IMG/VR virus record: IMGVR_UViG_2698536687_000001
Length of the DNA: 64,000 nt
DNA from: a virus
Lineage: Duplodnaviria > Heunggongvirae > Uroviricota > Caudoviricetes
Strand: one strand, 5' to 3'
The position numbers were made by a program, and so were the translations under genes. Below, piece by piece: positions 17,470 to 22,187 of this stretch. The notes under the pieces were generated by a model. That model had not been told where the DNA came from and made no database searches. It saw only the letters and a list, made by a program, of their open reading frames with translations. Every line of letters starts with the position of its first letter. The first letter of the stretch is position 1.

Positions 17470-17486
17470 AGATTTATTAGAGCAGC
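17470..17486 (-). promoter_or_regulatory. C1 operator-like site
   Basis: AGATTTATTAGAGCAGC, 3 mismatches. Confidence 0.45.
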
Positions 17487-17992
17487 TATTGTTGATGGAG
17501 AAGCACGTTTTCATACTCCCTGACCATTAACGTAAGTACGCCGTGACTCCTGAAAACACGCGCTACTTCAATCTTATCTTCCAGCGCGAACGCAATTTTA
17601 CTTAGACCAATTTTCTTAAGGAGATTAATCTTTGCTGGACCATCATTTCTGTCATCGGTGGCAGGACGCATAGATAGCAAAGGCTCAGCCCCGTTTGTTA
17701 CGTGCTTACGCAACCAGGCTCGTGTTTTATCCCTGGCTATCTCACAGCGCCCGGTTACAAACCAGAGCGTGTAAATGCAGGACAACTGGCGCACCATATC
17801 AATAACTGGAGTTATGGGTGTATCGGTGTCACAGGCGAGATTAAACTCGTTCCAGTCCTTTGTTAATGCACCTTTGCCTGGTGGCGGAAGCAAATGCAGC
17901 CTGTCTTCAGTTGCTTCTGATATTGTTCCATCAATATCGACTACGACGATGTACGGACGTTCCAGGTGTGCCTGTTTGTTGAAAATACTCAA
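17486..17992 (-). CDS. HAD-superfamily phosphatase-like protein, 168 aa
   Basis: Motif VVDIDGT near N-terminus (HAD motif I DxDGT). Confidence 0.55.
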   Translation of the reverse strand: MSIFNKQAHLERPYIVVVDIDGTISEATEDRLHLLPPPGKGALTKDWNEFNLACDTDTPITPVIDMVRQLSCIYTLWFVTGRCEIARDKTRAWLRKHVTNGAEPLLSMRPATDDRNDGPAKINLLKKIGLSKIAFALEDKIEVARVFRSHGVLTLMVREYENVLLHQQ

Positions 17993-18064
17993 ATGCCCTC
18001 CTCATTGGACGAAAAAAATGCTGGTGGGCGCACTCCACCAGCATTAAAAGTGACACTGTAACTA

Positions 18065-19327
18065 TCAGCGAACGTAAATAGTACCGCCGTTCTCTTTTTC
18101 CCATGCATCGCTACGTGCATAGCAAACATCGAGAAGTCTTCTTGCCGCAGTTTCCTCTAAACCCAATTCAACAACCAACTGCTCATGACGGCGGGTAACT
18201 ACATCAAATAGGCTATGCAGCCCTTTATTGGCCAGTTCATCAATGAATTCCGGTTCGAACGGCAGCTCTGCCTCTGCCAACATAACCTCTTGCGCCCACT
18301 CAACTCGACGGACCAATTCCGGGCGGCGGCTTTCCATCTCTTTACAGATCAATTCATGGAAGAACTCTACCCAACCTTCCGGCTGGAACTCGCGGAAAAT
18401 TGCCAACGGCTGGAAGTTTGGCATCAACCATTCGTTGATTCGGATATCAATGGCATAGCCCATGTCGCAGCAGAACTGATAAGCAAAGTCCAGCTTAGAA
18501 ACGATATAAGGACGCTCGTTATTGAACTCTTTAGGCGATGAGATCCCATAAGCCAGGAGGCGCGGGAAGAAGGAGATTTGCCCTAACGTCGGATGAAGTT
18601 TGCTTGCAGGGAAACGGCGCTCAGTAATGCCATACATTTCCTTCTTGAGCGTCGCAAATTTGGCATTCTCATTAACCAGCGCGGTAACCTCTGCTTTTTT
18701 ATTAGCAAATGCCACGCGCGCTTCGCTTGCATCTTTAATAGTTTTTTTGAGCTGTTGGTTAAGGTCGGCGACCTGCTTACGCAGTTCCTGTCGCTCGCTT
18801 TTAGCTTTGTTATAGCGTTTCTCAAGGTTAAAAGGATCAAGTTTCATGATCTCTTTATATTGAGATTTTAGCGTTGAAATCTGTGAGTTCCGCAGTTCAA
18901 CCATCGCGGTCATTTCATTGAGTTTTGTTTCCAGCTCAATGCTTATACGTTCGGCATTATCAGCACGCTGGTTGGCGTCATGCGTCGCATCGTCGATCGC
19001 GTCCTGTTGCTGGCGTTTCAAATGTTCAATTTGTAGCTGAAGCTCTTCAATTTCTTTACCCTTCAGACCGAGATCCAACTGCATATTTTCAGCTGCATCT
19101 ACCAGGGAGTTATGGCTATCAGCTTCTGCGTTATAAACATCAATAAGCTGTGCGTGAAGCATCTCCGCTGACTGAACCGCATTATCAAAAAAACGCGCTG
19201 TGAGGTCATCACAACTAACGCGGCGTTGCGCGGCCCGGATGTTCTGGATAATGGCCGGGATACCGGCATTCAGGACGTCAGGGATAGATACATTTTCGAT
19301 TGATTGGTTTTGTGCTGAAGTGATCAT
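18065..19327 (-). CDS. Hypothetical coiled-coil protein, 420 aa
   Basis: Long heptad-rich central region (EELQLQIEHLKRQQQDAIDD...); no catalytic motif recognised. Confidence 0.5.
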   Translation of the reverse strand: MITSAQNQSIENVSIPDVLNAGIPAIIQNIRAAQRRVSCDDLTARFFDNAVQSAEMLHAQLIDVYNAEADSHNSLVDAAENMQLDLGLKGKEIEELQLQIEHLKRQQQDAIDDATHDANQRADNAERISIELETKLNEMTAMVELRNSQISTLKSQYKEIMKLDPFNLEKRYNKAKSERQELRKQVADLNQQLKKTIKDASEARVAFANKKAEVTALVNENAKFATLKKEMYGITERRFPASKLHPTLGQISFFPRLLAYGISSPKEFNNERPYIVSKLDFAYQFCCDMGYAIDIRINEWLMPNFQPLAIFREFQPEGWVEFFHELICKEMESRRPELVRRVEWAQEVMLAEAELPFEPEFIDELANKGLHSLFDVVTRRHEQLVVELGLEETAARRLLDVCYARSDAWEKENGGTIYVR

Positions 19328-19328
19328 T

Positions 19329-19547
19329 TCAAAGTTCCGTATTAGCTTGTGCTTCGGTCATTTTTCCTAAGTATGAAGGAGGAAGGACTACGCAATTTGT
19401 ATCCAGTCCCTCACCTATGGCAGCCTGTAAAATTCTGGCTAAGGTGAGTCTCTTGTTGCGATACCTGGTGATGACATGCCTGATACCGCCGGTCGGCGTA
19501 ACAAAGGCGATCAGCCAGTAGTGATATTTCCGTCGGAATGGCCACAT
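19329..19547 (-). CDS. Hypothetical protein, 72 aa
   Basis: ORF directly downstream of paired C1 operator-like sites; stop abuts next gene start. Confidence 0.4.
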   Translation of the reverse strand: MWPFRRKYHYWLIAFVTPTGGIRHVITRYRNKRLTLARILQAAIGEGLDTNCVVLPPSYLGKMTEAQANTEL

Positions 19548-19627: not shown

Positions 19628-19628
19628 A

Positions 19629-20330
19629 TTATTCTGATTCTCGCTCAAAAAATGAGCTGATAAGGGGAAGCCAATCCTCTGACACTTCGCGAGGTCGCGG
19701 TTTGCCGTGGAAAAAGATTATTCGGCAGTCTTTTGGTAATGCCCCATTCCCCCTGGAGTAACGCGCGCTCGCATATTTTGAACCAGGTTCCACAACATCG
19801 GCCTTGTAACTTACAAACCATCCTGGATACAGATCCTGAAATGCTGGTGTATCATCGCCCATAACCTTTCGTAAGAACCCCTGGTCACCCCAGCACTCAG
19901 TAGTGACACAACGAGAAATCCAACCTTCCGGATCTTGCCAGAATGAACTCCAGATATGCGCTTTAACACTATTTGGTATCCACAGGGCACCGCTGCCACG
20001 ATATTGTGGATGGTAAAAATCCCTAAGCATGGTGAAGCTGGTTGGTGGATGCTCTAGGATTGGGCGTATATCACCGGCAATAACCGTGTCCAAATCCAGA
20101 TAGAACAGATCATCGGTTATATCCGGTCGGAACAACTCGATTTTCGCCCACCAGCCACGGCACTTTTGCCACTGGTTGATCAATGGGATAACTTTGACGC
20201 CAGGTACATGTAAACACTTCAGGTCTGTCAGGCAAATAATTTCATAGTCTTTTGGCAGTTGATTAACCAGCCACTGCACATCGGAAGCGTTATAGTCACC
20301 ACCAGAGCGAAGAACTAAAGCAATCTTCAT
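19629..20330 (-). CDS. Hypothetical protein, 233 aa
   Basis: ORF starting 3 nt after upstream phosphatase stop; no domain recognised. Confidence 0.5.
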
Positions 20331-21019
20331 GCTGCACCATCACCTTTCACTTTCATCAATGTCAGGTTTCCGCAAAATACGGCACCAGTGTCGATATACT
20401 GCTGATTCCAGAATGTCTTCGGGCTTTTCACCGGAGTGTGACCAAAGATAAAACGATCTGCGCCCGAAATTTCGCCACCAATATCATCCATCGAATCACT
20501 GATACGCTCGCGCGCCCAGACAACGTTGAAAAGCGGTACCTCCTTACCGAATTGGTATTCATTATCCGGATAGTCGGCATGGGCTATAACGATAGTTTCT
20601 TGCCCGGTGTTCAACTCAATGATATAGGGCAGACGCTTTACCAGCTCCACCAGCGCCCAGGCTAATATTTCCTGATCAGTGTCCAGCATGAAGAACCATT
20701 GTCCGCCATTCATTAGCCAGTTATTCACGTTGCCATCTGGACTTAACGCATCAATCATCAGCCGCTCATGGTTCCCCATCACTGCCCTGAACCAGGGCAT
20801 CTGCAATAGTTCCAGACATTCGACATTTTCAGTACCGCGATCGATAAGGTCGCCGACCGATATCAGTAAATCCTGCGCCGGGTCAAAATCCACACGATGG
20901 AGTTCGGACATCAGTCTGGTGTAGCAACCATGCAGATCACCAACAACCCAGACATTCCTGTATTTGGTACCGTCGATACGGTGATAAATTGTGGGTGCCA
21001 TCATGTATTCTTCAGCCAT
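20327..21019 (-). CDS. Ser/Thr protein phosphatase (lambda PPase/PrpA-like metallophosphatase), 230 aa
   Basis: Metallophosphatase motifs GDLHG, GDLIDRG, GNHE read in translation. Confidence 0.8.
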
Positions 21020-21627
21020 TCTTTAAGAGTCATCTGCGGAATACCTCCCATTTTCCCGCATGAAACAACGTCAATCTGTTCACGCGCAGACTGGAATAAC
21101 AAAGGCAGGTGACTTAGATTTTTTGGCGTGCCGCCGGAGTGAACGCGTGGTTCTTGTGTAGCGTCAACGCCCACCAGGGCGACATGTTTGAATCCGATAT
21201 GGAAAGCCAGGTTCAGAGCGCCATATGCACTATTGCCGCTGGCAATTTCATTCTCATCTTCGCAAAGTCCGAAATGTGCGGACCAGCGCCACGCCCACCA
21301 CTCGGGAGAATTCGTATTTTTTGGCTCCATGCCACGTTCAGCCACACGACGGAAGCACAGAACGCCGTCTCTGACTTCACGTTCTTTAACATCGGGTAGT
21401 GCCATGCAATAACAAACACCACGGCGACGGCGGCCACGACCAACGCGCCGCATATTGTCTGGCGATGGATCAAGTGTGAAAAAATAAGAAGCGCGGTTCA
21501 GCCAGTCGATGGCCCCATTGACCGCTATAATCGGCACTCCGCGCGGCGCAACAAAGTTTGCGGCGCTTGGGCCACTGCCGACGATAATAACGCGATCACT
21601 GCCTCTAAATTTATTCTTGGGAAACAT
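21001..21627 (-). CDS. DUF115/MptE-like protein, paralog 1, 208 aa
   Basis: GSGPS ... IAVNGA motif pattern shared with the adjacent paralog; family assignment from memory, moderate. Confidence 0.5.
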
Positions 21628-22187
21628 TGAATTGCACTGCTCCTACTTGCATTCAAAATATGTAAATCTGCGTGTTTTTTGCGGGTATCCAGGAACTGCT
21701 GTTGCCATTTTGAAATAGACACCTGCGTTGGATTCCGTAGGGCTTGAGGGTGCGCGCCATGCCAATGAAGGCCGTTTTGCAGAGAACAGTCATAGCCGAC
21801 TAATACCACTACTTCAGCCCCTGATTCAGCAGCCAGACTAATAGCCTGCGCGCCGCTATTTACCCCTTCCGCCGGTCCACAATATCGCCTGTACTCCAAC
21901 GAAAATGATTTCGCCGCCGCCAGGTTGGCTGTCACTTTGCGGAATCTCCCTCCCGGTATGGTGGATCCGTATTGCTTCCACCATGACAAATCACCGGCGT
22001 ATAAGGCATAAATGTCATCGAACATCTGCCAGGAATTGTTAACCGCGATGATAGAACAGCCAGTTTGTTCTATAGCAGCACAGTCCTCACGAGTGAGTGA
22101 CGGACCGCTACCGACACAAAAAACAGTCCTAGTCGCCCTGGGTGGTATGTTCATTCTCAGCTGCAAATTCAGCCTCCAGGCGAGCAT
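21525..22187 (-). CDS. DUF115/MptE-like protein, paralog 2, 220 aa (start uncertain)
   Basis: GSGPS ... IAVNNS motif pattern; overlaps paralog 1 by about 100 nt so true start is probably internal. Confidence 0.45.
   Translation of the reverse strand: MLAWRLNLQLRMNIPPRATRTVFCVGSGPSLTREDCAAIEQTGCSIIAVNNSWQMFDDIYALYAGDLSWWKQYGSTIPGGRFRKVTANLAAAKSFSLEYRRYCGPAEGVNSGAQAISLAAESGAEVVVLVGYDCSLQNGLHWHGAHPQALRNPTQVSISKWQQQFLDTRKKHADLHILNASRSSAIQCFPRINLEAVIALLSSAVAQAPQTLLRRAECRL

Follow-up and report, generated by a model that had tools for sequence, protein, structure and literature searches.

The 64,000-nt stretch of viral DNA in IMG/VR record IMGVR_UViG_2698536687_000001 (hereafter, the window) carries the pmgL-to-pap segment of a P1-type phage-plasmid. 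This region is already annotated: it belongs to the "putative morphogenetic" (pmg) block of phage P1, which was described together with its internal C1-controlled promoter by Lobocka et al. 2004 (AF234172/NC_005856). Our main subject is a set of 3 genes within it, pmgO, pmgP, and pmgQ, which appear to form a conserved, head-associated glycosylation cassette that crosses phylum boundaries and includes a Rosetta-stone fusion. To the annotated picture, the present analysis appears to add this cassette, a predicted capsid-tail acceptor in HK97-type phages, and an (HhH)2 domain in PmgS. We judge it about equally likely to be right or wrong that pmgO-pmgP-[ppp]-pmgQ is a late-expressed cassette for the glycosylation of proteins, probably of the virion, set within a mosaic region.

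A P1-type region under C1 control

Positions 17295-23300 of the window are collinear with phage P1 (AF234172, NC_005856) at 98.1% nucleotide identity and match the AF234172 annotation gene for gene, including operators Op86a/b and promoter PpmgR. A megablast search with positions 17000-23300 returned 19 P1-group phages with at least 95% coverage and 98% identity, and phage vB_EcoM-673R5 covers 100% of the same interval. All minus-strand open reading frames (ORFs) listed in an earlier reading of this DNA, made from its letters alone (the original prediction), were confirmed, positions included. In the order of transcription, the minus strand carries LPpmgL and Op82; pmgL and pmgM; Op83; pmgN, pmgO, pmgP, ppp, and pmgQ; Op86a/b and PpmgR; pmgR, pmgS, and pap; and Op88. 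The features are as follows (aa, amino acids).

~23276-23294, plus strand: late promoter LP26, divergent from LPpmgL (P1 annotation)
~23266-23284, minus strand: late promoter LPpmgL, divergent from LP26 (P1 annotation)
23235-23251: C1 operator Op82/O26 (operator match and P1 annotation)
22932-23177, minus strand: pmgL, DksA-like zinc finger; with pmgM, the first genes of the transcription unit
22351-22929, minus strand: pmgM, candidate VRR-NUC-type nuclease
22330-22346, plus strand: weak C1 operator Op83 (Oppp), between pmgM and pmgN
22129-22284, minus strand: pmgN, 51-aa ORF, head of the pmgN-pmgQ unit
21525-22187, minus strand: pmgO, 220-aa ORF, predicted DUF115/MptE-like (Maf-like) transferase
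21001-21627, minus strand: pmgP, ORF, DUF115/MptE-like paralog and most conserved member of the module
20327-21019, minus strand: ppp, ORF, lambda-type (PPP family) Ser/Thr phosphatase
19629-20330, minus strand: pmgQ, 233-aa ORF, predicted GT8-like retaining GT-A glycosyltransferase
19611-19627, minus strand: C1 operator Op86a, facing Op86b (operator search and P1 annotation)
~19598-19626, minus strand: promoter PpmgR, overlapping the facing operators (P1 annotation transferred by alignment offset)
19562-19578, plus strand: C1 operator Op86b (operator search and P1 annotation; the pair is OpmgRa/b, formerly Op86a/b)
19329-19547, minus strand: pmgR, 72-aa ORF, PmgR of P1
18065-19327, minus strand: pmgS, 420-aa ORF, coiled coil plus predicted C-terminal (HhH)2-type domain
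17486-17992, minus strand: pap, ORF, predicted stand-alone HAD phosphatase of the polynucleotide kinase-phosphatase type
17470-17486, minus strand: C1 operator Op88 (OpmgT), at the end of pap (operator search)

C1 operators were sought over the whole window with the 17-bp asymmetric consensus ATTGCTCTAATAAATTT, which has 15 matches against 0.44 expected by chance; within the region, matches at 17470, 19562, 19611, and 23235 occupy annotated P1 positions. The facing operator-like sites that had been noticed ahead of pmgR (19562-19578, plus strand, and 19611-19627, minus strand) are thus real operators of the P1 map, and the accompanying proposal that an internal repressor-controlled promoter splits the cluster agrees with both the sequence and the P1 annotation (PpmgR, OpmgRa/b). 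The control region upstream of pmgL (23235-23294) is 99% identical to that of P1, where, according to the annotation, a unit of tail and baseplate genes (26/25/7/24) diverges from the pmg unit. Compared with P1, Op83 carries a C-to-T change (GCAC to GTAC) that adds 1 mismatch, giving 5 to the consensus, and C1 binding may have been lost at this site.

pmgO, pmgP, and pmgQ recur as a module in three phyla

We gathered homologs of PmgQ (131), PmgO (51), and PmgP (328) and inspected their genomic contexts. A scan of viral contigs with the PmgP profile recovered P1-identical loci only, and the diversity came from the species-dereplicated GTDB genomes. Among these, a PmgQ homolog lies no more than 4.5 kb from PmgP in 14 of the 17 PmgP-type loci, the remaining 3 being cut by contig ends. 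A lambdoid prophage of Citrobacter rodentium has contiguous PmgO-, PmgP-, and PmgQ-like genes (41%, 58%, and 43% identity, respectively), flanked by the lysis cassette on one side and the small terminase gene on the other and with no ppp among them. In one phage (a 62-kb contig), PmgO and PmgP are fused into a single 376-aa protein, P0171, the N-terminal half of which is 37% identical to PmgO and the C-terminal half 49% identical to PmgP; a PmgQ-like gene and then a further GT-A-like gene follow downstream. The order of the genes varies among loci (O-P-Q, O-Q-P, Q-P, and P-Q), which points to selection on co-occurrence rather than to inheritance as a block.

The hosts belong to 3 phyla, Pseudomonadota, Bacteroidota, and Gemmatimonadota, and all are diderms. 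They include Enterobacterales, Pseudomonas, Zhongshania, Microbulbifer, Methylophilaceae, Commensalibacter, Brevundimonas, and Ochrobactrum and, outside Pseudomonadota, a genus of Flavobacteriaceae (Bacteroidota) and Longimicrobiales (Gemmatimonadota).

The junction between the PmgP- and PmgQ-type genes is a site of insertion, occupied by ppp in P1-like phages, by class-I or FkbM methyltransferase genes in 5 lineages, by a gene for a small GT-A protein in 3 lineages, and by one for a GT-B protein in Escherichia phage EP_H11. The extra genes found within the module or next to it encode FkbM and class-I methyltransferases, Nucleotid_trans GT-A proteins, and a Dbn-like Glycos_transf_1 protein, all of them types predicted to tailor glycans; FkbM-type methyltransferases are typical of sugar methylation. 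Because none of the non-P1 loci inspected has ppp between P and Q, this gene is best described, from gene order, as a P1-lineage insertion at the pmgP/pmgQ junction. P1-like elements (L089) are the only ones in which Ppp, PmgN, PmgR, PmgS, and Pap are found alongside the module. The original prediction had combined both phosphatases and the DUF115 paralogs into one unit, and this part of it does not hold: outside P1-like elements, only PmgO, PmgP, and PmgQ co-occur. The pmgL-to-pap segment is a mosaic of units that have transcription, and no function, in common.

Two variants of the module's surroundings deserve mention. In EP_H11 (L240, 5501-8190), the gene between PmgP and PmgQ encodes a Glycos_transf_1-like homolog of P1 Dbn (48% identity, E = 3e-106), the product of the P1 gene dbn ("downstream of ban"; L193 42660-43658). 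This position suggests that P1 Dbn probably belongs to the same glycosylation pathway as the module. Prophages related by their capsid protein to one of the module-bearing prophages (L110) form a large clade (L152 clade; L149-L192, ~5262-8641) in which the capsid protein ends in GSLTAS. Here, the capsid gene is followed by only 1 gene of PmgO type and, ~2 kb further on, by genes for a 296-aa protein without a Pfam match and a Methyltransf_23 protein; the DUF115 core thus seems to have acquired another set of accessory genes. A GT9-type heptosyltransferase, suspected in this clade from a motif seen by eye, was dropped for lack of a Pfam match.

PmgQ is predicted to be a GT8-like glycosyltransferase

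Searches of PmgQ, PmgO, and PmgP against the sequences of the PDB, both as single sequences and as profiles, gave nothing significant, and we therefore turned to structure prediction. The AF2 model of PmgQ has a predicted local distance difference test (pLDDT) score of 94.9, and its top Foldseek matches are Skp1 alpha-galactosyltransferase, glycogenin, LgtC, WbbM, GlyE, and LARGE1, with E values down to 1e-8. Nearly all of the top 50 PDB matches are GT8 enzymes or glycogenin-like domains, with template modeling (TM) scores of 0.5-0.6. Across 52 sequences, the DxD motif D79-L80-D81 is invariant and H208, G209, P211, and P213 (H-G-x-P-x-P) are at least 90% conserved; in profile alignment, the 2 motifs fall on the DxD and the H-x-x-G-x-x-K-P-W of E. 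coli WaaJ, although the hhalign probability for this pair is 39%. PmgQ also matches PHROG 1962, "glycosyltransferase," at 1e-127. No Pfam or NCBIfam family, the GT8 model included, matched PmgQ, and its best match among PDB sequences has an E value of 0.089. PmgQ shares with GT8 enzymes (glycogenin, LgtC, WaaJ/WaaO, and Skp1 alpha-galactosyltransferase) the GT-A fold, the DxD, and the C-terminal His motif, but is only 12-18% identical to them (TM ~0.55) and, at 233 aa, is shorter than the lipopolysaccharide (LPS) enzymes of ~340 aa. On the strength of the model, the 233-aa protein that had been set down as an unknown is a predicted GT8-like retaining GT-A glycosyltransferase and the third member of the module.

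PmgO and PmgP are predicted DUF115/MptE-like paralogs

The assignment of PmgO and PmgP as DUF115-like paralogs was borne out at the family level. The window proteins score 23.5 bits (PmgO) and 20.9 bits (PmgP) against MptE-like/DUF115 (PF01973), for which the Pfam cut-off is 34.6, and 63 of 65 members of the 2 families match PF01973 at E values below 0.1, with the fused homolog P0171 reaching 44.6 bits. PmgP was modelled alone, and the fold assignment is based on this model, which has the MptE-like/DUF115 fold; its closest structural neighbours are the Maf flagellin glycosyltransferase, the MptE kinase, and sialyltransferases. Furthermore, a profile built from PmgO and PmgP together matches E. 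coli WaaZ, which we take to be a putative KdoIII transferase of the LPS core (Kdo, 3-deoxy-D-manno-oct-2-ulosonic acid), with a probability of 92.7%, and a faint WaaZ_KDO_III Pfam match was recorded for P0171. Since the neighbours of PmgP include enzymes of both CMP (cytidine monophosphate)-sugar transfer and pyrophosphoryl transfer, the fold by itself fits either. The gene company, namely a GT8-like enzyme, further glycosyltransferases, and sugar-type methyltransferases, favours a predicted glycan-building pathway over pyrophosphoryl transfer.

The PmgO family (51 homologs, mostly of 180-200 aa) matches PHROG 4603 at 7e-74 (PmgO) and has as invariants GPSL, N50, D66, WW, SG, GYDCS, and HWHGxH. 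As the homologs are shorter than the 220-aa ORF and align only from around residue 20, the true start of PmgO is probably M12 (22154, MNIPP...) or later. Each of the 2 families retains its own invariant His, Asp, and Asn residues, and both proteins may therefore be catalytically active. Maf (PDB 5mu5, PF01973) is a protein of 632 aa in which flanking domains surround the DUF115 domain, whereas PmgO and PmgP, at ~200 aa, correspond to the catalytic core only, have sequences under the Pfam cut-off, and lack nonulosonic-acid synthesis genes beside the O-P-Q module.

The module lies among virion genes, and capsid tails are candidate acceptors

In HK97-type prophages of at least 7 taxa, the module directly follows the major capsid gene or lies among the head-completion genes. 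Two of these prophages (L097 and L110) have the order terminase, portal, protease, capsid, O-P-(methyltransferase)-Q, connector; another (L099) reads capsid, P-Q, connector; and in a further one (L111), the capsid gene is followed by the connector, P-Q, and head-closure genes. All told, the module is in or directly after the head genes in L097, L099, L101, L110, L111, and L106-109. A podovirus-like contig (L005) carries it, with an FkbM methyltransferase gene, between the capsid and tail-tube genes, and in 2 other phages it follows the lysis cassette. Its position among virion genes indicates late co-expression with the virion proteins.

The capsid proteins encoded beside the module end in GSLSES, GNLSGAS, GSLKDGS, or SGATGS, whereas module-free relatives with 72-82% identity end in GDLTAA, GPLTPAA, GPLIAAP, and similar sequences, or in YHRVAAA or YHRVAE. 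In a separate clade with a PmgO-type gene and a methyltransferase gene, the capsid protein ends in GSLTAS or GSLTSS. Relatives of 2 of the module-adjacent capsid proteins were collected. Among unique tails, the last residue is Ser or Thr in 7/7 module-bearing and 0/19 module-free tails, and the last 6 residues contain on average 2.9 and 0.74 Ser/Thr, respectively, in a comparison that draws on ~5 lineages and is uncorrected for phylogeny. This pattern is as expected if the C-terminal tail of the capsid protein is the acceptor.

Other loci offer a hint of protein substrates. In 5 Pseudescherichia species (L091-L095; for example, L091 2357-13419), O-, P-, and Q-like genes are non-contiguous and interleaved with adhesin genes, which encode a 1178-aa inverse autotransporter with an IAT_beta domain and 7 Big_1 domains, a Big_1/RCC1-repeat protein (999 aa), and a Big_1 protein (494 aa); all 3 proteins consist of 21-22% Ser+Thr. 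Bacteria may here have turned the phage module into a locus for glycosylating adhesins.

Two observations concern further proteins. In alphaproteobacterial prophages (L106-L109; for example, L109 5104-6375), collagen-like G-X-Y repeats, GRDGKDGKDGERGPEGKAGPAGRD..., form the end of the protein whose gene lies just upstream of the PmgO-like gene; glycosylation often targets collagen-like proteins. In P1, the capsid, sheath, tube, and fibre proteins were checked for a Ser-rich tail, of which gp23, the capsid protein, has none. Among the 6 P1 virion proteins inspected, the tube-initiator Tub (L193 15389-16000) is the only one with a Ser-rich C-terminus (...NQSSSSLASLLGFSFSL), and it is a candidate acceptor.

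A precedent for such a system exists in mycobacteriophages, in which, in the account given by PMC12619734 (citing Freeman et al. 2023), the subunits of the capsid and the tail tube bear glycans at their C-terminal ends. As far as that account goes, these systems resemble the module in that phage glycosyltransferase genes lie with structural genes, the glycans sit on C-terminal tails, and the modification is dispensable in the laboratory; they differ from it in enzyme set and hosts, as the module combines a DUF115/Maf-like pair with a GT8-like enzyme and occurs in diderm hosts. In a search of papers on phage DUF115 proteins, virion glycosylation, and phage phosphatases in anti-defence, we found nothing bearing directly on the module.

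Published P1 genetics fit a dispensable decoration

In the P1 single-gene knockout library, pmgR is essential and was complemented in trans, its mutant producing tails and incomplete heads that are not joined, and the other 24 library mutants have no plaquing or anti-restriction defect (PMC9024508). A table in the genome-wide CRISPR interference (CRISPRi) study credits the knockout work with non-essential pmgL-Q, pmgS, and pap, and CRISPRi itself scored the genes of the region as non-essential except pmgN, missing the essentiality of pmgR (PMC10695390). Knockdown of pmgN lowers plating to 1.4e-2 although the deletion is viable, and pmgO-pmgQ knockdowns are without effect (PMC10695390), so simple polarity does not explain the pmgN result. 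Two cryo-electron microscopy (cryo-EM) studies of the P1 virion did not find PmgL-PmgS or Pap in the particle. The lack of a laboratory plaque phenotype of module knockouts fits a dispensable virion decoration.

A proposed pathway and its competitors

We infer the chemistry, donors, acceptor, and subunit arrangement outlined below from gene identities, folds, motifs, conservation, positions, and operators. PmgO and PmgP would be paralogous Maf/DUF115-type transferases that work as a pair, presumably as a heterodimer, since they are fused in one phage. PmgQ would be a metal-dependent retaining GT8-type glycosyltransferase using a UDP (uridine diphosphate)-sugar. In the lytic cycle, the 3 enzymes would act in the cytoplasm to assemble a short glycan on Ser/Thr residues of an acceptor protein. 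In P1, the module would be served by C1-repressed sigma-70 promoters and by the late promoter LPpmgL, and would thus be off in the lysogen and on in lytic growth, with pmgR, pmgS, and pap forming a second unit behind the C1-controlled PpmgR. The acceptor would most likely be a virion protein and, in HK97-type prophages, the exposed Ser/Thr-bearing C-terminal tail of the major capsid protein. CMP-Kdo is a plausible donor for the DUF115 pair because no other CMP-ulosonic acid is shared by the diderm hosts in which the module occurs, and PmgQ might use a common UDP-hexose; the absence of sugar-nucleotide synthesis genes from the module and its restriction to diderm hosts fit both choices. Hence, the suggestion that the cluster modifies host or phage macromolecules during lytic growth agrees with what we find for pmgO, pmgP, and pmgQ but does not extend to the whole cluster.

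In a wider form, which we put forward tentatively and regard as somewhat doubtful, PmgO/PmgP/PmgQ would be a widespread, previously undescribed virion-glycosylation system of diderm-infecting phages. The Maf-like DUF115 heterodimer and the GT8 enzyme would then furnish the exposed C-terminal Ser/Thr tails of major capsid proteins, or other virion proteins, with a short glycan that would often be methylated and might contain Kdo; the P1 copy would have an overlooked substrate, and bacteria would have borrowed the enzymes to glycosylate inverse-autotransporter adhesins.

Several points weigh against a virion glycosylation cassette. PmgO and PmgP of the window score below the Pfam cut-off for MptE-like proteins and PmgQ matches no Pfam family, while GT8 and WaaZ-like enzymes are also classic enzymes of the LPS core. 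The capsid-tail correlation stems from few lineages, as stated above, and the capsid proteins of 2 podovirus-like contigs lack a Ser-rich tail, so that the idea may not apply there. In P1 itself, the capsid protein gp23 ends in ...DAGDSE, which is not Ser-rich, and the module is not adjacent to the capsid gene. In EP_H11, the module lies among small genes near a DNA ligase-like gene rather than among structural genes, in an unannotated region that gives no hint of timing. Finally, no glycan has been reported on the P1 virion: neither of the 2 cryo-EM studies mentions one, with fibres and several termini unresolved in them.

The strongest competitor is remodelling of the host envelope, which we consider unlikely on the whole. 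On the LPS core or another surface glycan, PmgQ would take the part of LgtC or WaaJ, and PmgO/PmgP that of WaaZ, masking the receptor and so sparing superinfecting phages or progeny from loss on infected cells and debris. The receptor of P1 is LPS core glucose. This explanation leads the alternatives because GT8 and WaaZ-like enzymes are LPS enzymes: LgtC and WbbM are among the structural neighbours of PmgQ, the PmgQ profile aligns with WaaJ over the DxD and His motifs, and the PmgO/P profile (92.7%) and P0171 (faintly) match WaaZ. It also accords with the exclusively diderm hosts and with the 2 phages in which the module follows the lysis genes, a common site for accessory genes. Yet most prophage modules are embedded in the head cluster with no space for a promoter of their own; expression would then be late only, leaving minutes before lysis in which to replace LPS. 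Moreover, the P1 unit is C1-repressed in lysogens, unlike seroconversion genes, the module is without membrane-anchoring or flippase genes, and the links to capsid tails and adhesins point to proteins.

Modification of a small molecule, nucleotide, or nucleic acid is improbable. Here, PmgO/PmgP would resemble MptE or thiamine pyrophosphokinase and (pyro)phosphorylate a hydroxyl group, with PmgQ and the methyltransferases elaborating the product into a nucleic-acid or metabolite modification. The fold of PmgP, which has the MptE kinase among its neighbours, would allow this, but WaaZ and Maf are closer functional relatives, the partner genes encode glycosyltransferases and FkbM-type methyltransferases, and a position among head genes is atypical of DNA-modification genes. 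It is also disfavoured because, to our knowledge, genes for a hydroxymethyl-pyrimidine pathway are lacking in P1, lambdoid, and HK97-type prophages and hypermodification of P1 DNA is not known.

It is very unlikely that the whole pmgN-pap cluster is one functional system, for example, one that counters host defences through dephosphorylation or modification: its genes share a strand, overlapping ends, and C1 control, and include a Ser/Thr phosphatase that looks active (Ppp) and a phosphatase of the predicted end-healing type (Pap), but they occur all together only in P1-like elements, with O, P, and Q alone travelling together elsewhere; an internal promoter and operators split them; pmgR is morphogenetic; and the knockouts have no anti-restriction change (PMC9024508). 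The anti-defence role that had been proposed for the cluster finds no support either, the only PADLOC hit being coiled-coil noise (LmuB) for PmgS.

The other genes of the region

Both phosphatase calls of the original prediction hold. Ppp matches Metallophos (PF00149) at E = 9e-16 (59.3 bits against a cut-off of 21.5), PrpA/PrpB-type phosphatase models at 3e-81 (the PrpA-type model under its equivalog cut-off), and a NinI-like PHROG at 5e-113, and its translation contains GDLHG, GDLIDRG, and GNHE. It is annotated as 64% identical to the lambda phosphatase NinI, with all metal-binding motifs present, but its gene lies inside the proposed glycosylation cassette, whereas that of NinI lies in the nin region.

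Pap matches HAD_PNKP with 42.2 bits (cut-off, 27.6) and has motif I (DIDGT) at residues 19-23. It also matches the polynucleotide-kinase PHROGs 415 and 505 and, weakly, the phosphatase domain of Pnkp1 (4xrp). It is 168 aa long, its match to PHROG 505 is confined to the phosphatase portion (profile positions 158-292 of 295), and the profile matches include no N-terminal P-loop 5'-kinase domain. Pap thus resembles the C-terminal HAD domain of T4 polynucleotide kinase-phosphatase, with HAD_PNKP and DxDGT, but lacks the kinase domain. From these matches, it is predicted to be a stand-alone PNKP-type 3'-phosphatase and not an "acid phosphatase." A scan of 10 ORFs of the region gave no match to RNA ligase.

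The 420-aa coiled-coil protein was likewise confirmed. PmgS has a coiled coil at ~aa 60-230, a middle domain, and a C-terminal (HhH)2-type domain; its matches to SMC/Rad50 models run through the coiled coil only. The family is small (74 representatives among 1.8 billion proteins). Its profile (A8) matches the Rad51 N-terminal domain at E = 1.2e-6, as well as RadA and the RNA polymerase alpha-CTD, and the homolog P0308 scores 29.8 bits to HHH_5, above the cut-off of 27, while the PmgS of the window, searched alone, had no Pfam match. PmgS is a coiled-coil protein with a predicted non-specific DNA-binding end, and its database label "PmgS-like head morphogenesis" is unsupported.

For pmgR, found only in P1-like loci, a role as a morphogenetic factor has been demonstrated. 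The members of the cluster are not all homologs of replication or morphogenesis proteins, even though pmgR does have a morphogenetic role. Of the 2 genes named upstream of the cluster, the zinc-finger protein is well supported, PmgL matching a DksA-like zinc-finger PHROG at 1.6e-12. The VRR-NUC assignment of PmgM falls just short (VRR_NUC, PF08774, 21.2 bits against a cut-off of 23.8), although residues 103-173 match the Holliday-junction-resolvase PHROG 5702 at 5e-27.

The downstream junction and other departures from P1

In P1, pmgT/U/V lie beyond pap and Op88, whereas the window has at this place, as does vB_EcoM-673R5, a gene for a 1038-aa type I restriction subunit (hsdR-like; 14103-17219, plus strand) that is convergent to pap; the junction falls at ~17220-17486, with Op88 retained. 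According to the P1 annotation, the junction is 96-98% identical to sequences flanking the EcoDXXI and R124/3 hsd loci, and it looks like a recurrent exchange point for restriction cassettes. Just downstream of Op88 is an unannotated ORF of 28 codons, MNTVFKIIMTAIYFWLFSITFGGIVAHG (17299-17385, minus strand), which is preceded at 8 nt by a good Shine-Dalgarno sequence (AGGAG) and encodes a strongly hydrophobic product that resembles a small membrane peptide or type I toxin. The segment is also present in P1, upstream of pmgT.

At the other side, the window diverges from P1 past gene 5 (27443-28051), over the stretch 28050-34279. Homologs of dbn and ban were not found in the window by tblastn. 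This stretch contains a 1095-aa ORF (30992-34279, minus strand) behind an overlapping pair of C1 operators (30974-30990, plus strand, and 30985-31001, minus strand) that resembles the bivalent Oban operator, and the ORF may be a replacement replication gene.

Implications

Although geneticists use few phages as much as P1, around a dozen of its pmg genes have no more than a placeholder name. For 3 database labels, "alpha-2,3-sialyltransferase," "PmgS-like head morphogenesis," and "acid phosphatase," the analysis provides corrections. If the glycosylation reading is true, the module would be, as far as our literature search went, the first proposed case of virion glycosylation in phages that infect Gram-negative bacteria, and an experimentally easy model, because the knockouts already exist. 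It would also predict a specific acceptor motif at capsid C-termini and give a partner and a context to many DUF115 and GT8-like "hypothetical" prophage genes across several phyla. Virion glycans matter for the immune recognition of therapeutic phages. If LPS is the target instead, the module would be a lytic-phase receptor-masking system, which would likewise be of interest.

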